The translations under genes were made by a program, and so were the position numbers. 24,028 bases of DNA from a virus (lineage: Duplodnaviria; Caudoviricetes): positions 1 to 24,028 of IMG/VR virus record IMGVR_UViG_3300020045_000874. One strand, given 5' to 3'. How positions within the stretch are numbered: the stretch's first letter is position 1; each line of letters begins with the position of its first letter. The notes under the pieces were generated by a model. The model ran no database searches and was not told where the DNA came from. It worked only from the letters and a program-made list of their open reading frames with translations. Below are positions 1,080 through 22,669 of this stretch, piece after piece.

Positions 1080-1146
1080 AGCGAAAACCCGGAAACATTG
1101 GCGTGTTGTCCGGGCTTCTAACCAAAATGCACTAAGGGTAATGCAC

Positions 1147-1788
1147 ATGGCTGATAGTAATTCTACATCATCTTTCTACGTCTATGTTCATCGCAGAGCT
1201 ACAGACGGTTCTATTTTCTATGTTGGAAAAGGAATAGATAACAGATCGAATGAATCAAAAAGCAGAAATCAACACTGGAAAAATATCGTAAAAAAACACG
1301 GGTATACGATTGATTTCGCACAAAAAGACATACAAGAATGGTATGCATTTGAGTTGGAAAAAGACTTGATTTCGTATTATGGACGTGAAAACCTTTGCAA
1401 TAAAACTGATGGTGGAGAAGGCTCAAGTGGACTTAAGCATTCAAAATCATCAATACAAAAGATGTCAATATCAAGCACGGGTAAAAAACATAGTTTATCT
1501 ACAAAACAAAAAATGTCAGATTGGCAAAAAACAAAAAAATTGACCACTGAACATAAGAAAAAAATTGCAGATTCAAACAAGAAAAGAGTTCTAAGTGCTG
1601 AATCAAAATTAAAAAACTCATTATCTCAGCCAAGTAAAAAACAGGTGATATGTATTGATACAAATCAAATGTTTGAATCAATCAAAGAAGCTGCAAGATA
1701 TTTTAAAATATATGCAAGCTCAATAGGTAAATGCTGCACAAATGAGTACAAACAAACTCAAGGAATGAGATTTAGATATGCAGCTTAG
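1147..1788 (+). CDS. Free-standing GIY-YIG homing endonuclease with NUMOD3 repeats and a NUMOD1-like C-terminus
   Basis: FYVYVH..FYVGKG motif, conserved R, E and N (LCN), NUMOD3-like GLKHSKSSIQKMS and GKKHSLSTKQKMS, then VICIDTNQMFESIKEAA. Visibly AT-rich. Second ATG (1147) is better spaced from the TAAGGG RBS; ORF track start is 1141. Confidence 0.85.
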   Translation: MADSNSTSSFYVYVHRRATDGSIFYVGKGIDNRSNESKSRNQHWKNIVKKHGYTIDFAQKDIQEWYAFELEKDLISYYGRENLCNKTDGGEGSSGLKHSKSSIQKMSISSTGKKHSLSTKQKMSDWQKTKKLTTEHKKKIADSNKKRVLSAESKLKNSLSQPSKKQVICIDTNQMFESIKEAARYFKIYASSIGKCCTNEYKQTQGMRFRYAA

Positions 1789-11858: not shown

Positions 11859-13880
11859 TTAAAAGTCTCCTAAATTGATGTTACCCATGACGCAGCTTTT
11901 TACTGATGCGTTACTTACGCCACCTGAGTTGCTATAAATATTTCCAGATACGTATAAATTTGAACTTGTTGAATATAAACCAACGCAGTTTGTAGTGCTG
12001 TCAATGTTATTACCAGTTATCTGTAAACTTTTTGCATTACGAACTGCAATACCTTGTAGTAGCGCAGTTGGCACTCCTATAATTGACACTTTTTCAAGTT
12101 TGATTATGTTTCCTGAAATCTCTCCAGAGAACTTTCCGTCAATGGTAATCATCCCGTTAGTTGTAACAACTGATCCATTATACCCAGTGAATATGTTGTT
12201 GGCGATCTGGAGTCCAGCACTCGGCACAGTAGTTGAGCACGTTATGGTTAATTTACTTGTGTTGTTAAAGCGGTTGTTAATAACTACAAGTCCCGATCGT
12301 ATTTCATCAGGATTGGAAGATGAGTCGCTATAGATGGTGTTACCTGCATTAGCGTTACCGGATAACAAATTACCATCAATCGTAATGTCTCTATAAAACG
12401 ATGATAGGTACACGCCAAACTGATTCCCAGTTAATGTGTTGCCTTTAACTAGCACGTTGCGGAAACGAGCATTTACACCATGCCTGCAACCAGAAACTGT
12501 GTTATTTGTGATTGAAATGAACTCTGCGTCAGTGTGTGTTGCAATGCCTCCATGAGACATAGGAAACCCACTGCCACTCAAATCACCGTAGTTTCCTGTT
12601 ACTGTGTTAGCGTCGACAGAAATAAAGCGACTCACTCCATAATACTTGTTAACTGCACCAGAGGATATGTGAGAAGACACAATCCCATGACGAGAATTAA
12701 TGATACGATTATTAGATATAACCCCGTTCATACTTGACGAGTAGACAATACCATAAGAGATAGAGTCCACATTGCCATTAGTCCCATGCGGGTCTTGGTA
12801 CACATCACAGTTGTCAATCATGAATCCTCGGCAACCAATCACCTCTACAGCGCGTAGGTCGATCCTTACGAACTTGCAGTTTCTAACTGTGACATTCTTG
12901 CCGTGATAAATACCAAGCCCTGTGTCACCGTCACTTACAGCGTAACGGCCCGGACCCGTGAATGTAACACCCTCAATAGTAATGTCCTCAACCGGCGTAA
13001 TCTTGCGTAAGCGCGCACCAGATGCCACTGGCAATGTATCGAATATAGGTGTATCCAAAACAAGTTTAAGCCTACTACCTGACGCTAATGATACGCTAGT
13101 GACAATGTTTAGTTGCCCAGTTTTAACTGCAATGGATGGGTCGTTAAAGCTACCCGCTGCATTCATGCTAATCTCAACTAGCGAACCTACAGTGAACGCA
13201 GACGCATCAGTTCCAGAGACATACACAATATTGTTGTCAATAGTAGCATCATCGGTTAGCAATATTTCAGCACTAGCCGAACCACGGAAAGTGAACAAAC
13301 TCGTAGATGCCGTGTTGTATGGCACTGTGCGATGAGAGAAATCAATAGTAGATCCTTGATCGCCTACGATCTTTGTCTTGGTGTACCCGACAATTGGACC
13401 GTCGCAGCGAATAATCTCACCATTTATGTGAAGAGTTCCGCCGCCGATGGTATTAAGATGGTTGAGCGCTGCTTGTAATTTTGTAGTTTCATCCGTTCCG
13501 TTTCCAAGCACCCCAAAATCCTTAACACTAACAGACTCACGCAATTTACCCTGCACCGTAGATGCAATGACTCCAGTACCAGCAGGCAAATACCCAACTA
13601 AAGATGCGCCTGAAGATGCTGACAAAGAAGCCACGGTAGCAGCAGCCTCTGTAGCGCTTAATTCAGCAGCGTCTTTGGCTGCTGTAGCATCCGCCAAAAT
13701 ACTTTCTGCACCAACATTAATCTCAACATTTTTATTTGATAAGAATTTTTGAATAGATGGAACGAATACACCTGAAGATGTGTTATATCCAATTGATTCA
13801 TTTCCATTTGCAAACCTATCAATTCTCTCATCATTTGATTGAAAGCGAATAACAGCTTGATCTAAGGGTAATTTAGCCAT
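11859..13880 (-). CDS. Tailspike 2, right-handed beta-helix (pectin-lyase-like depolymerase)
   Basis: GASLVGY..TVQGKLRESVSVKDFG..DET..LQAAL followed by many I.GN/NN beta-helix rungs. Confidence 0.85.
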   Translation of the reverse strand: MAKLPLDQAVIRFQSNDERIDRFANGNESIGYNTSSGVFVPSIQKFLSNKNVEINVGAESILADATAAKDAAELSATEAAATVASLSASSGASLVGYLPAGTGVIASTVQGKLRESVSVKDFGVLGNGTDETTKLQAALNHLNTIGGGTLHINGEIIRCDGPIVGYTKTKIVGDQGSTIDFSHRTVPYNTASTSLFTFRGSASAEILLTDDATIDNNIVYVSGTDASAFTVGSLVEISMNAAGSFNDPSIAVKTGQLNIVTSVSLASGSRLKLVLDTPIFDTLPVASGARLRKITPVEDITIEGVTFTGPGRYAVSDGDTGLGIYHGKNVTVRNCKFVRIDLRAVEVIGCRGFMIDNCDVYQDPHGTNGNVDSISYGIVYSSSMNGVISNNRIINSRHGIVSSHISSGAVNKYYGVSRFISVDANTVTGNYGDLSGSGFPMSHGGIATHTDAEFISITNNTVSGCRHGVNARFRNVLVKGNTLTGNQFGVYLSSFYRDITIDGNLLSGNANAGNTIYSDSSSNPDEIRSGLVVINNRFNNTSKLTITCSTTVPSAGLQIANNIFTGYNGSVVTTNGMITIDGKFSGEISGNIIKLEKVSIIGVPTALLQGIAVRNAKSLQITGNNIDSTTNCVGLYSTSSNLYVSGNIYSNSGGVSNASVKSCVMGNINLGDF

Positions 13881-13998: not shown

Positions 13999-16479
13999 TC
14001 AAATGCGAACGGTTATAACTTTTAATGTTCCAGAGGCAAGATCAATTGTCCCGCCACTTTCATTTTGCAGTCGTACACTTACAATATCTGCTGTACTGAC
14101 CCACGCACTAACTGTAATGCCTTGCAGCGGAAGACTAAAACTAGCTCTCGCTTCATCACCTAGACTGGCTCCAATAGCTGAAACTGTCACAGTTATTCCG
14201 GAACCGTCTGCCATTGAGGCTGGGTCAACTGTACTAGACCCACGCGCAGTGAGTCCAAGATGATTTGCACCAACACCAAAACTTCGTTGTATGCTGTACC
14301 CAGATATAGTATTGCAGTCCATAGACACCGAACTAACGGTATCAGCCAGTTTTATGCCAGTCGATGCTACAGTTCCAGATGCAGAGCTAACAGCATTTCC
14401 TGTGATACTTAGATTTGAACTATCGCCTGTAATTGAAATTCCCTCTGCCACAACAGTAGAAGGTGTTAATACGGAGTTTCCTGTTACTGCACATTTACTG
14501 GCGTCTTCAAGTCTTATTCCGATTCCTGCATTATTAAAGATTGAATTACCTACAACAGATGCGCCGTTCATGTGTTCCAAGTAAATTCCACCCACTGCGC
14601 CATCGGCCACAACATTTCCTTGCACTACGATGCAATCCTGTGTTGATCCAGTTACATCATTAAGTGCTATACCCTGAGCAAATGAGAACTTTCCTGAATC
14701 TTGCCCTGCATATCTAATGCTGTTATTTGATACTACTACCCTTCGCATCTCAAATGCTGTTCCTCTGGTTCCTTGTCCAGCTAGTATTCCAGCTCCTCCA
14801 GTTCGCTCAATTCGATTCCCTGAGATTATTGCAGTACCTACACGATCAGCCTCAGAGTGAAAGTAAATTCCATAAGATTCTGCACCAATTATGGTATTGT
14901 TTATAACTTCACAACTGGCACATTCAATATTAATACCGGATGCTGATGATCCTATGATAGTGTTGCCAAGAATTTTTATGAAATCTGCACCTCCGTGGGT
15001 ATCCACCGCATCTCCCCCTGTGTAGGCTGTTACTGTGTGAGTACCACTTCCAGTGCTAGTAATATAAACCGGATTAATAGCAGCAATTGCATCATCTACT
15101 GTAAGGTGTAAGGTAAATGTCGTAAAGTCTACTACCACTGCAAGGTAGTAATTAAATGAGGCTGATATACCTTCTGGTAAGGTTCCTGTTGTTACAAGCC
15201 TTACCAGTCTAGCTTCTGAGAATGTTACACTTGGAGCCGCAACGGTAATTGTATTTTCAACAGTACTTACTGTTAATGTGGAAGATGTAACACTGGCCCT
15301 TGCTGAATAAAGGACTGTATTAGCCGTGAAAGTTATGCGACGGACAACACCGTAATCTGCAGAGATATTGTTATTTGTACTTAGTGCGTGTCTCACATCA
15401 TCAAAACTGCACAGTGACACTATGCTATCTTGTGATGCATCAACAAATGATACTCCATACCCAAGAGAGATTGGTCGAGTGTGGGAGAACCTGCAACATG
15501 TAACCAAAGAGTTAACTGAATCTTTAATATAGATTCCACGATTATCAAATGACTCAAATGACATTCCAGTGATATTTAGCCCATCTACGTAGTCAAACCT
15601 CAAGCCCGTAGCTGAATCGCGTACTGCCGATGGACCAAGTAATTTTCCGTCTTTCACAGTAATATTACTTAGCATACTCAGTTTTGCAAACTTGGCTAAA
15701 CTTTCAATTAAATAATTTGCTGCCAGTGGGGATGATAGATATATCCTGTCAGATGGGAGACTAGTATTTAAACTGTCAGATGTTGCTATCTTGTTAATCT
15801 CTCCATACCTTGTATCAGTGTTGGCTGCATCCCATACTGTCTCACTTACAATTTTGATCCAGTCACCCCTGATAAGGCCAGTTGTTGGAGCCAGCATGTA
15901 GAAGTTACCTTCAACTCCAGAGCTTGTGAGATTTGTATATGCGCCGATAGATCCATTGAACTGCAATAAAGGTCCAGAAAATGTAGCACTGGATGCATCT
16001 ATCGTTGATCCATTAAAATCAACAGTGAGATTTGAGCATGAATATGTTCCAAGAACTCCACTCACCCTATAAATATCTGTAGGAAACCAAAGAGTAGTCG
16101 GTGTTCCGGCTGCCGCCCTTCCTGCTACGTAGGTCAATGCGGCGACTAATGATGCAGTGTCATCAATCACACCTCCGCCAACTACTCCAAAATCCAAAAC
16201 ACTTACATGCTCACGCAGTTTAGACTGAACATTTGTGGATACAGCGCCTTCGCCATTTGGCAAGTAACCCACCAAAGACGCACCACTTGGATTGAAAACA
16301 CCACTTAAATTAGCGTCAATCTCAACATTCTTATCGGCTAAAAATTTCTGAATGGAAGGCACGGAAACACCTGAGGATGACGTGTATGTATCCGAAGCAG
16401 ACCCATTGGCAAATTTTTCCATGCGTTCGTCATTAGATTGGAATCTAACAACTGCCTGATCTAGTGGTAATTTAGCCAT
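13999..16479 (-). CDS. Tailspike 1, right-handed beta-helix (pectin-lyase-like depolymerase)
   Basis: KLREHVSVLDFG..DDTA, beta-helix rungs, and a C-terminal DPASMADG..VTV..GA.LGD..V.VRLQN..DLASGTL domain. Confidence 0.85.
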   Translation of the reverse strand: MAKLPLDQAVVRFQSNDERMEKFANGSASDTYTSSSGVSVPSIQKFLADKNVEIDANLSGVFNPSGASLVGYLPNGEGAVSTNVQSKLREHVSVLDFGVVGGGVIDDTASLVAALTYVAGRAAAGTPTTLWFPTDIYRVSGVLGTYSCSNLTVDFNGSTIDASSATFSGPLLQFNGSIGAYTNLTSSGVEGNFYMLAPTTGLIRGDWIKIVSETVWDAANTDTRYGEINKIATSDSLNTSLPSDRIYLSSPLAANYLIESLAKFAKLSMLSNITVKDGKLLGPSAVRDSATGLRFDYVDGLNITGMSFESFDNRGIYIKDSVNSLVTCCRFSHTRPISLGYGVSFVDASQDSIVSLCSFDDVRHALSTNNNISADYGVVRRITFTANTVLYSARASVTSSTLTVSTVENTITVAAPSVTFSEARLVRLVTTGTLPEGISASFNYYLAVVVDFTTFTLHLTVDDAIAAINPVYITSTGSGTHTVTAYTGGDAVDTHGGADFIKILGNTIIGSSASGINIECASCEVINNTIIGAESYGIYFHSEADRVGTAIISGNRIERTGGAGILAGQGTRGTAFEMRRVVVSNNSIRYAGQDSGKFSFAQGIALNDVTGSTQDCIVVQGNVVADGAVGGIYLEHMNGASVVGNSIFNNAGIGIRLEDASKCAVTGNSVLTPSTVVAEGISITGDSSNLSITGNAVSSASGTVASTGIKLADTVSSVSMDCNTISGYSIQRSFGVGANHLGLTARGSSTVDPASMADGSGITVTVSAIGASLGDEARASFSLPLQGITVSAWVSTADIVSVRLQNESGGTIDLASGTLKVITVRI

Positions 16480-16480
16480 A

Positions 16481-16945
16481 TTAATATCCGTGTGATGGTA
16501 TTGTTATATTTGTCAAAGTATTGAGCAAATCTTCAATATACAAAAAGTCTGAAGAAACATTGGCTGAAATCAATTCATTCAATGTTTTTTGTTGTATTTT
16601 AATGATATTCAGATTTCCATACTGAGTCTGAACATCAAAATTAATCTCAATATTCCTCGACGAACGGTTGAAATCAAACGCAAAGCGCGTGATTGACTGA
16701 GCGCCGTCCACATCTAAAATAGACTTTTTCAAAGCCGCAATAGAGCCAGAAAGACTCACTTGCTTGCCTAATATATCAGACAAGTATGGCGTGCCAAACT
16801 CGGTATCCATAAACCACTCGCCAGCCCATAATTTGAGCTTAATGGCTAGGTGTTGACGAACACGTTCAGCGCCGTCCAGCATCACCAGATCGTTGTCAAT
16901 CAAAACAAGATCATGGGTTACTTTGTCTAATGCAATATCAATCAT
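16481..16945 (-). CDS. Baseplate wedge / sheath-initiator protein (gp25/gp46-like)
   Basis: MIDIALD..HDL..VRQHL..KL..W.GEWFMDTEFGTPY; follows the spike gene. Confidence 0.8.
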   Translation of the reverse strand: MIDIALDKVTHDLVLIDNDLVMLDGAERVRQHLAIKLKLWAGEWFMDTEFGTPYLSDILGKQVSLSGSIAALKKSILDVDGAQSITRFAFDFNRSSRNIEINFDVQTQYGNLNIIKIQQKTLNELISANVSSDFLYIEDLLNTLTNITIPSHGY

Positions 16946-17544
16946 TGTGGGACACCAGTATTAGATATACCCGGCTCAACACCGCCGTGTGAGTGATCTG
17001 CGAATTCAATGGACGAAATATTTGCACCACCCACTACAGTGGCGTGACCCGACAGAGTCATTTCTGGAGCCTCAATAGTTACCCCTCCAGGCGCTGTAAT
17101 AAGCAAAGCACCACCAGAGGTAAGCCTCATAGACGCAGCCCCGTAAAACACCGTTAAATCAGCGTTATTGCCACTATCACCAGCGCCAGCCGAGCCCAAG
17201 TCACATGGAATGCAATAAGAGTCTGAAATATCAAACCGGCGAGCATCATCAGTGCCGTCAACCGCTTGTTGCGCGAACACTAGCAGGCATTTATCACCGG
17301 CTTTAATCGGCCCCTTAACACCCGCTGACCCGCCACTAAAGCTAGGCCAGCAAACCCGGACGTTTTGCAGGATTGGGAACGTTAAAACATCACCATCAGC
17401 AAAGCGTCGTTTAGGAGTAGGCTGCACACTAGCGCGGCCATTGGCGTAACCAGTGATAACACCCGGCAGGCTAGTGTTAATTTCATGCAGGCGACCATCT
17501 ACCATGCTTTTAAGCGCACTGATAAAGTCGTTATTTTCTGCCAT
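16942..17544 (-). CDS. Baseplate central spike (Gp138-like)
   Basis: TSLPGVI..VQP..P.KAGDKCLLVF..RRFDISD and C-terminal HSHGGV metal-binding HxH. Start probably ATG 17544 (ORF track 17553). Confidence 0.88.
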   Translation of the reverse strand: MAENNDFISALKSMVDGRLHEINTSLPGVITGYANGRASVQPTPKRRFADGDVLTFPILQNVRVCWPSFSGGSAGVKGPIKAGDKCLLVFAQQAVDGTDDARRFDISDSYCIPCDLGSAGAGDSGNNADLTVFYGAASMRLTSGGALLITAPGGVTIEAPEMTLSGHATVVGGANISSIEFADHSHGGVEPGISNTGVPQ

Positions 17545-17551
17545 ATAACAC

Positions 17552-17611
17552 ATTTTATCCCATAAATTTATTTTGACAAAATTGAATTTTTGAGTGAAAT
17601 GGAGTTAAACT
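17552..17611. promoter_or_regulatory. Back-to-back divergent sigma70-like promoters
   Basis: Minus: TTGTCA (17579-17574), N16, TAAAAT (17557-17552). Plus: TTGAAT (17582-17587), N18, TAAACT (17606-17611). AT-rich context. Confidence 0.5.
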
Positions 17612-17620
17612 TCAATCCAA

Positions 17621-18061
17621 GCACTAGAAATAGTGTCATCAAGTAAGCAAGCCGAAACGAGTGTGGCTAACAGAGTGAGGACACGAATAAGGCGCTCGTA
17701 AAGCCGAGTGACCACATGAACGTCTGCTTGCTTACTTGATGGTTTGGTATAGATGAGTACACGTTTGCCAAAGTACACGGGTAAACAAACGGACGCAAGA
17801 ACGCTTAACGGCGTAATCGGCAACCATCAACTATCAATCATGAGCCTTGCCATAGTTAGCAATCGGTATGGGTAAAGTCAGGGCTTATGATTGATGGTGA
17901 AGCGCATAAAGTCATACAGGCTCACAACTGGTGACGCGTAGGATTAGGGGTGCCTAGTCGCCATCAATATTTATGGGGTGAATGCGCAGGCTGATGCGCT
18001 GTTACTGGGGTTGACCAGCAATGCACTCAGAATCCGGAGATCAGTACCGGCCACCCCACCA
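17621..18061 (+). ncRNA. Array of five structured non-coding RNA units antisense to the tail operon
   Basis: GAAA-tetraloop hairpin 17622-17635. Closing stems of 16 bp (17637-52/17726-41), 9 bp (17736-44/17822-30), 19 bp (17831-49/17879-97), 10 bp (17891-900/17958-67) and 6-7 bp (17974-80/18052-58). G-U pairs work only on +. No credible ORF. Confidence 0.7.
17975..18061 (+). ncRNA. tRNA-like cloverleaf with 3' ACCA and a loop-loop pseudoknot
   Basis: GGGGTG/CACCCC-A-CCA; arms GCGC(A)/(T)GCGC, CTGG/CCAG, CCGG/CCGG; loop CTGAT complementary to loop ATCAG; no TTCRA T-loop. Confidence 0.65.
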
Positions 18062-18985
18062 TCACACATACCGCAACACAAGCTGAGAGTACCAGTCTTG
18101 ACCATGAGAATCACCAACGTGATTGATAGTTTCGACTCTAAAGTATTCCTTATCAATCCCGCGAGTATCCAAGCGGACATATCCACCAGGCTGCAATGCG
18201 GGCTGCAAAAGGCTTTTCACTCGGTAGCCTTGGACTTCTAGTTTCTTTTCGTTATTACCGGCCTCAGTCTCACCATAAGTCACGCGAACGCCTTTTTGTT
18301 TCGCGGTGAAGCCTTTTTTAGCTGCGGTCTTTTCAGAGTAAATTTTATGCTCTGATTCTGGCGACTCAATAAGCCCAGTGTCAGGCGACAGCACGAAGGC
18401 TTGCATATCAACAGCTTTACCTTGTTTCAGGATCTGTAACTCCCGATTCTGGATTGACCATTCAAGCCCTAGAAAGTCACACGCCTTTTTCATGGCTTCG
18501 CGTGATCGGCCAATGAAAGCAAATCCATCTGGATATGTCTTGGTTGCTATCTCGCTTGGCAATGGCCGGATAGGCAGCTTAAACGTCGCTGCAATGTTGC
18601 TTAAAACTTGTTGCGCCGATACGCCTGGCGAGAAGCTAAAAGAAGTCTTTGTGTCTTTGTATTCTGCACCACCGTCTGACATTTCCAACTCAGTGATAGA
18701 ATCAGCGCCTTCAATGCGAGTCAACGCCCGCGTAACCGTGCCCGTGAAAATAGTAATCTCGCTAACGTCACGCTTATATCCAGCTTTCAGAATAAGAATG
18801 TTGTTGACAGTCTCAACCAAAGCGCGTGAGTTTTTGTTAAGGTTGTATATGCGACAGGTACACGAATTAGGCGTGTCAATCGAACCCTTCTCAATAGCGA
18901 ATGAAAACCGTAGATCACGAATCTCGACGGCTTTCCCATCAGGCTTGCCAACAGTCAGCGAGGCTACACGGTCAAATAAAGCCAT
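18062..18985 (-). CDS. Baseplate hub protein
   Basis: LRFSFAIEK..PN..RIYNLN..LKAGY..IF.G..WSIQN..L..TGLI.SP..LLQP..GDSHG.DWY; synteny. Confidence 0.82.
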   Translation of the reverse strand: MALFDRVASLTVGKPDGKAVEIRDLRFSFAIEKGSIDTPNSCTCRIYNLNKNSRALVETVNNILILKAGYKRDVSEITIFTGTVTRALTRIEGADSITELEMSDGGAEYKDTKTSFSFSPGVSAQQVLSNIAATFKLPIRPLPSEIATKTYPDGFAFIGRSREAMKKACDFLGLEWSIQNRELQILKQGKAVDMQAFVLSPDTGLIESPESEHKIYSEKTAAKKGFTAKQKGVRVTYGETEAGNNEKKLEVQGYRVKSLLQPALQPGGYVRLDTRGIDKEYFRVETINHVGDSHGQDWYSQLVLRYV

Positions 18986-22240: not shown

Positions 22241-22669
22241 TTAAGCGCCGGACAACGACAGTTTCAAATCAGCACAATCAAATATGAATGAACGTTCGCC
22301 GACTTCTTTTCCGAAGACAATTTCAGGCGCTGACTTGAGCCACGACTGAGTAGAAACCACAAGTTCAGCACCATCACCCGGCGACACGATCTGAATTGGA
22401 ATCAGGATGTCGCCATCAAACAGGAAGTTGTCCAAAGCCACCAGTGCAGACAGTTCGTTCACCGCTGGCGAGCTTTGCAATAGCTTAATCTCGATAGAGC
22501 CTGACTTATTTCCATTGCGAGCGCGGGCGACATGGCCGTCAGCGCCAACGCGCTTCATGTACAAGTCTTCATCACGTTTTGCCGTGATAAAGTCGCCATC
22601 AATAAAGCCAGAGACGATAACTCCACCGACAATCACGGTGAGTTTAGTTGGGTCGTAAGTAGTTGCCAT
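22241..22669 (-). CDS. Tail tube protein (DUF3277-like)
   Basis: TYDP..GF.DG..VGADG..SG.I.I.LLQSS..N; follows the sheath. Confidence 0.85.
   Translation of the reverse strand: MATTYDPTKLTVIVGGVIVSGFIDGDFITAKRDEDLYMKRVGADGHVARARNGNKSGSIEIKLLQSSPAVNELSALVALDNFLFDGDILIPIQIVSPGDGAELVVSTQSWLKSAPEIVFGKEVGERSFIFDCADLKLSLSGA

Follow-up and report, generated by a model that had tools for sequence, protein, structure and literature searches.

The window, meaning the whole stretch of DNA that was analysed (24,028 nt), is a 24-kb virus record of a phiEt88-like myovirus whose hub is 48% identical to that of phiEt88. Its tail genes occupy the minus strand. The gene at 18062-18985 (minus strand) was assigned to the baseplate hub family (phrog_196, E 2e-71), in line with the initial annotation, whereas the spike named there at 16942-17553 (minus strand) matched no PHROG family and keeps that label by position only. 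This spike-position gene had no relative in GTDB genomes and hence gave no host assignment; one of the frame motifs described below was found in 4 genomes, 3 of them titled Acidovorax, Polaromonas or Comamonas, a weak hint of the host. The 508 nt between the two genes (17554-18061) are filled by an RNA island, and three overlapping ORFs of 71-87 aa within them had no PHROG match, which agrees with the earlier description of a gap of about 500 bp devoid of a credible reading frame. In the more distant loci L014 and L027 (hub identity 53-54%), the hub and spike genes are only 8 nt apart and the array is absent, indicating that the island is a lineage-specific insert. Elsewhere in the window, two tandem tailspike genes (11859-13880 and 13999-16479, minus strand) suggest two receptor specificities, and the top 120-nt tile of a coarse folding scan (1081-1200, minus strand; z -6.2 from 12 shuffles) coincides with the point where a gene for a Cas4-domain exonuclease meets one for an HNH homing endonuclease, the plus strand at 1070-1150 being unremarkable.

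The island is read here on the plus strand, where its first element is a candidate sigma-70 promoter comprising a -35-like TTGAAT (17582-17587), an 18-nt spacer and a -10-like TAAACT (17606-17611). A promoter scan returned no plus-strand site above threshold, the candidate scoring 8 of 12; the promoter-like block was kept in 8/8 complete relatives, with TAAACT, TATGAT or TAAGAT as the -10 element, and conservation stopped a few bases 3' of it. In one locus, L159, the promoter region is separated from the first stem by a short plus-strand ORF. A predicted foot hairpin with a GAAA loop (17621-17636) directly precedes long stem A; among 13 matches to its motif in the lineage, the long stem opened at the next bases in 12, and the hairpin may stack under stem A, lengthening its short lower helix. 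Unit A (17636-17742), a predicted RNase III substrate, encloses a multibranch cargo in a long stem that was first recorded as a perfect 16-bp helix; the 16 Watson-Crick pairs are there, and a U-G pair brings the actual stem to 17. The 3' end of this stem is the 5' arm of unit B (17736-17830), which closes with a short stem of 9 pairs. Unit C (17831-17897), also a predicted RNase III substrate, has the 19-pair stem originally reported, 3 of the pairs being G-U, and encloses a bulged hairpin, so that the multibranch interior attributed to the units holds for A and not for C. Its 3' arm is in turn common with unit D (17891-17967), in which a 10-pair stem surrounds a variable hairpin and a constant 7-pair 3' hairpin. 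Unit E (17974-18061) consists of a 7-pair closing stem, hairpin 1, a variable cargo, hairpin 2 and a 3' ACCA, and ends flush with the hub stop codon; its layout resembles that of STnc100, and its loops show probable pairing (GCUGAU/AUCAGU). The five units had been described as interlocked, which is accurate for A/B and C/D, while E is set apart by TATTTA (17968-17973). A's cargo was also compared by eye with twister and hammerhead motifs and rejected as a ribozyme.

Folding of the whole island gave z-scores of -5.3 on the plus strand and -4.3 on the minus strand, beating 100/100 shuffles on both; all five stems were present, bearing out the proposal of five plus-strand folds in the gap as well as its comparison with shuffled controls. 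Taken alone, A, C and D were strong (plus-strand z -7.1, -6.2 and -3.6), and B and E were not exceptional by energy (-1.8 and -0.7). A sliding 120-nt scan did not single out the island, A's tile ranking 4th and 11th of 400. Unit A folded equally well on the minus strand (z -7.0), which, with the antisense position of the island in the operon and a scan that found no plus-strand terminator for it, is what might be seen if the island controlled the tail operon in cis, either by antisense transcription that continues into the hub gene or by cleavage of the late mRNA in A's mirror-image stem. A 14-nt word of D recurs at 22591-22604; however, 7/200 shuffles reached 14 nt, and a 12-nt match to the hub was kept in 1/12 relatives, leaving the suggested antisense control of late genes without support. 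The occurrence of the E frame at unrelated places in phiEt88, P1 and N4-like phages and the lack of the insert in L014 and L027 also speak against control in cis, which we consider very improbable.

The units are tied together by repeated stem arms. Six arm words (TTGATRR or YYATCAA) occur in 483 nt, against an average of 0.27 (maximum 3) over 5000 shuffles that preserve dinucleotides, for a motif that was picked after the fact. A motif-blind control was weaker: the best 6-mer plus its complement occurred 5 times, a count reached by 17/1000 shuffles and 5/49 window tiles. With that qualification, the repeated TTGATGG architecture noted at the outset is real. The outer stems of A/B and C/D had been thought to compete, and they do have an arm in common; in the full, uncut precursor, however, A and C are predicted to take it outright, with a pair probability of 1.0 for A and C and 0.0 for the closing of B and D. 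Across lineage arrays, long stems open with YYATCAA and close with TTGATRG, and short stems open with that closing arm. Among 30 shared arms in 15 arrays, the upstream stem had at least 12 pairs in 24, the downstream stem at least 7 in 27 and both in 22, the remaining arms reflecting mostly cut contigs or parser failures. The arm word varies by lineage. At other viral E loci, of which 56 of 90 had enough flank and distinct upstream sequence, the 20-nt arm that terminates at E's 5' arm lay in a long upstream stem in 41/56, whereas control arms displaced by between -10 and 150 nt did so in 3-13/56 (p below 1e-5, Wilcoxon). The cut-off used, -21 kcal/mol and 15 pairs, was adopted once a more permissive value had failed to separate the two (48 versus 43-45 of 56). 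A second frame was found in 55 viral loci, with its stem running into the E frame in L212, L241 and L243, and the P1 tRNA operon has the same build. By eye, L243 also contains a D-like frame. Right 3' of the E frame of this locus, positions 900-973 gave a sub-threshold match to the Burkholderia sRNA anti-hemB (RF02837).

Related loci revealed extensive turnover of the units. We collected 13 loci with hub identities of 93-98%, one of them a fragment, leaving 12 arrays of which 8 were complete (513-1078 nt). The 12 closest relatives bear one common IMG/VR sample number and are thus not independent, and chimeric assembly is possible; L160 came from another sample, and two sequencing runs, X1 and X2, which cover only B within the island, contained this unit at 99%, in X2 with different neighbours. 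All 12 relatives have the same layout, within which units were gained, lost and swapped, a point that the initial annotation had proposed to examine in related hub-spike gaps, and the 52 parsed units fell into 26 clusters, 17 of them singletons. The window itself has a mosaic make-up: four relatives carry B's cargo at 97-99% identity, two carry D's and one has C's loop variant, and A and E each hold a unique cargo. A's cargo had no homologue in the collected loci, viral contigs, or phage or plasmid records, and none was found for E's cargo; thirteen lineage phages, with hub genes 84-91% identical to that of the window, carried 9 unrelated E cargos. B, kept in 5/12 relatives, was searched with a 16-mer that gave 17 matches, 5 in lineage arrays and 12 by chance, and a gapped D pattern matched 5 contigs, all among the loci already collected. 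C was the most constant unit of the lineage, its core 19-mer occurring in 14 viral contigs, all hub/spike-linked and including 12/12 close relatives. By eye, the first long-stem cargo of L013 and the last short-stem cargo of L009 are related although they sit in different frame types. In a further unit, absent from the window, a T-arm-like hairpin follows a probable H-type pseudoknot, and no Rfam match reached gathering score; it occurs in the arrays of L002, L003, L004, L005, L008, L009, L013 and L001, and upstream of E in L057.

Growth of the array by site-specific insertion at TTGATGG, as initially considered, was not upheld: neither tyrosine integrase nor reverse transcriptase was detected in 5/5 relatives, Erf was absent from the five relatives examined, and all five encode an AAA_24 protein, which we take to be Sak4-like. 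Together, these observations favour homologous exchange at the constant frames. The units might alternatively be cassettes at the DNA level, their hairpins resembling integron attC sites or invertible repeats, given that a conserved 7-nt core and an inverse core surround variable cassettes that are gained, lost and reordered. Such elements would be hard to reconcile with the lack of a tyrosine recombinase (PF00589) in 5/5 relatives, one of them rated complete, with the finding that 0 of 52 units are inverted, and with cassettes that contain no ORFs; moreover, tRNA genes fill the same slots and loop-loop complementarity points to RNA. We give this reading next to no credence.

Comparison of homologous units showed compensatory change in C and D and in the closing stem of E, the kind of covariation for which the initial annotation had proposed a test; selection acts on the structure of C, D and E. 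In unit C, 99.5% of cells were paired and 2 pairs had changed on both sides (6/500 shuffles as high), and in D, 97.2% were paired and 4 pairs had changed on both sides, with 0/500 shuffles reaching the covariation score, both controls ignoring relatedness. B had few changes and one compensatory pair. The 16 distinct long stems of the lineage (12-19 pairs) also covary, and G-U pairs in C and D are retained on the plus strand. These patterns bear on the idea that the frames are real processing signals and recombination boundaries and the cargos mostly neutral or selfish passengers. Fast cargo turnover, the prevalence of singletons and the cargos of A and E, for which no homologue was found, would all fit passengers. 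Cargos that are shared, however, keep their structure by compensatory change, C's core persists in all 12 close relatives, and a phage of the lytic type retains 0.5-1 kb of array in its tail operon; we regard passengers as an improbable explanation.

The E frame extends far beyond this lineage. Its 21-mer was found in about 1,400 IMG/VR stretches, 120 matches being listed, and the frame was present in 147 phage records. Among 5,426 E. coli genomes it occurred in at least 735, and it was unannotated in the 25 matches listed. Parsing yielded 108 distinct units, and after removal of 2 mis-parsed rows the analysis comprised 97 frames, with cargos of 31-163 nt. Four pairs of the closing stem lying outside the search pattern were kept in 96, 95, 95 and 87 of 97 frames (shuffle means 88, 55, 66 and 50). 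Counting against the model, G-U and A-C combinations were equally frequent (10 and 10) where the parser imposed no constraint. In 93/97 frames, at least 5 of the 6 positions of the two loops were complementary, with the reservation that the search pattern and parser fixed part of both loops. A was matched with U in 8/10 cases and G with U in 16/84 (p about 2e-4 by a Fisher test whose input counts contained slight typing errors), and three frames swapped C-G for G-C. Judging from these sequence patterns, the loops of E probably form a kissing pair.

Frames of this kind keep company with tRNA genes, which were present in 10/60 E loci, all on E's strand. tRNA-Met closes the arrays of 6/12 relatives and again shares the strand of the array. 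In L002 and L003, units with short stems reach a tRNA score of 32 bits. The island could accordingly be viewed as a decayed or diversified tRNA cluster, in which short stems are acceptor stems and the units are tRNA mimics, tRNA-like substrates whose maturation depends mainly on RNase P, RNase E and 3' trimming. The D-arm/T-arm-like layout of E is compatible with this, as is the CCA with which arrays end in 12/13 cases, flush with the hub stop codon (window 18059-18064) whatever the last unit. Against it, no unit of the window scored as tRNA (0 with ARAGORN and RF00005), CCA does not consistently follow E's stem in other loci, and a tRNA origin leaves the shared arm and stems of 12-19 pairs unexplained; it is also compatible with RNase III action. 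We judge a tRNA cluster of this sort unlikely. Short frames resembling tmRNA tags were observed upstream of RNA frames in loci from Magnus, an N4-like phage, Bas80 and P1 (L024 1267-1292, L025 1303-1338, L026 1297-1342 and L244 326-359); ARAGORN misses them, and that of P1 scores weakly as a permuted tmRNA.

A mapped precedent for cutting stems of this type comes from dicBF, where RNase III and RNase E free DicF from a polycistronic RNA, as stated in the available portions of two reports (10.1101/2023.04.14.536235, PMC5069750), and where E. coli RNase III cuts are placed at 1649182/1649251 and 1649454/1649584 in the accessible part of PMC6212723 (Table S5). When dicBF was folded, the first cut pair was found in a long stem, 7 pairs up from its base, its 3' cut coinciding with the 5' edge of the stem's outer 3' arm; the second pair excised an STnc100-like frame whose match to STnc100 is below threshold. 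We scored candidate registers by rules drawn from excerpts of PMC6212723 and PMC1540722, the former giving as the substrate rule A-U or U-A at D/D', with the stretch between the two cuts predominantly G-C. The long helix that RNase III requires is provided by A (17 pairs), C (19) and all 16 lineage stems. In a dicF-like register (pairs 7-8), A-U or U-A occupied D', B' and D in 16/16 lineage stems and at least one G-C was present in 11/16, the best fit of 11 registers, although by itself this falls short of significance (p 0.21 by column shuffle). A rival register, at pairs 12-13 or nearby, fitted 9/16 stems (9/5000 shuffles), and its leftover duplexes, with model Kd values of 8 uM and 5 nM, would block closure, that of D above all. 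After dicF-like cuts, by contrast, the leftover duplexes were unstable in the model, with B closing at 0.81 with CTATCAA and 0.19 with CCATCAA and D closing at 1.0. A count in which the downstream stem was more stable in 27/27 cases was left unused owing to a loose partner pattern and unequal window lengths.

The model that best accommodates these data, which we hold to be reasonably probable, is that covarying modules with swappable inserts are transcribed from the plus strand, that A and C are cut, that the freed arm closes B and D, and that the RNAs likely act on the host. Processing of one polycistronic plus-strand RNA into several small RNAs, the central proposal of the initial annotation, stays a prediction and is supported by covariation, same-strand tRNA genes, promoter-like boxes and the dicBF sites. 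Transcription would very probably start from the promoter-like block (17582-17611). A and C would fold first, and RNase III would likely cut them about 7 pairs up from the base, in the position mapped for dicF. We lean slightly towards the leftover 6-7 pairs then falling apart, such that TGATGG could pair with the downstream YYATCA; modelled in this way, the shared arm makes most sense as a processing switch through which every product acquires paired ends. The predicted products are 17644-17736, 17737-17838, 17839-17891 and 17892-18061; in the last of these, a second cut within the AU-rich spacer would separate D from E. Cargo exchange would proceed by homologous recombination between constant frames, probably via the Sak4-like protein. 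It is conceivable, although we incline against counting on it, that the product RNAs act in trans in the conflict between phage and host, serving as DicF-like regulators or as decoys against tRNA-directed defences. This weakest step of the model draws on cargo turnover, the company of tRNA genes and the DicF precedent, and no target of cargo or antisense pairing exceeded chance among those looked for in the window. A broader and doubtful extension is that phages of proteobacteria use a common chassis, with constant frames, RNase III-dependent strand-swap capping and a kissing-loop scaffold, to carry exchanged cargo as an arsenal for anti-defence and host control. Were the model true, the seemingly empty DNA of phage tRNA clusters would be a large reservoir of small RNAs under selection by host conflict. 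The array also suggests a natural scaffold for obtaining several stable RNAs from one transcript.

An Rfam search of the window returned no family, C4 antisense RNA (RF01695) included, and only chance miRNA and snoRNA hits (E 1.6-7); with ARAGORN equally empty, the earlier statement that no named family applies held. Among known systems, the T4 tRNA cluster contains small stable RNAs of unknown role among its tRNA genes. We know of no shared-arm switch or interchangeable cargo in these T4 RNAs or in T7 R1.1-type RNase III substrates. A conserved lambdoid stem may reportedly have been described already by Faubladier in 1994. T7 R1.1-type substrates resemble the array in that host nucleases punctuate a phage transcript, as set out in the accessible text of PMC1540722. 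Literature searches, which covered the available portions of PMC10690425, PMC2864571, PMC5371410, PMC12197685 and 10.64898/2026.05.13.724894, turned up no account of such an array, of neighbouring stems interlocked through a shared arm, or of an invariant frame around interchangeable cargo; E and related frames may be among the 10,006 candidates of PMC10690425.

STnc100 (RF02076) gave no match in the window with E-values allowed up to 10, nor in 20 loci carrying E-type frames with a limit of 0.5. Compared by eye with the consensus, E nevertheless has its layout of GGUGAAU-hairpin followed by hairpin-CACC, and shares with STnc100, which is prophage-borne, and with the PasD prophage sRNAs, as far as the available text of 10.64898/2026.05.13.724894 shows, an opening GGUGAAU followed by a hairpin and a closing CCGG-type hairpin with CACC. 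E differs from STnc100 in missing the model, in its hairpin and loop sequences and in the range of its cargo lengths. The ban/tRNA operon of P1 (AF234172, 'dicF-like region') likewise interleaves tRNA genes with long-stem frames, some of which run into E-like frames, although the frames are unannotated in that record and the arm word is GTTGTG rather than TTGATGG. As predicted for the array, dicBF of E. coli, the nearest system known, is a phage-derived polycistronic RNA in which long stems enclose cargo and a mapped cut falls 7 pairs above a stem base, and its second cut pair excises a GGUGAAU-hairpin...hairpin-CAC frame. In dicBF, however, the cuts are mapped and protein genes are mixed with one known sRNA, whereas the array has five units and no proteins, re-uses a shared arm, exchanges its cargo fast and is cut by prediction only; the dicF stems and those of A and C are linked by geometry and are not sequence homologues. 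RNase III-punctuated prophage RNA is already known from dicBF, and by analogy the array, which lies outside every Rfam family tested, would work like dicBF processing.
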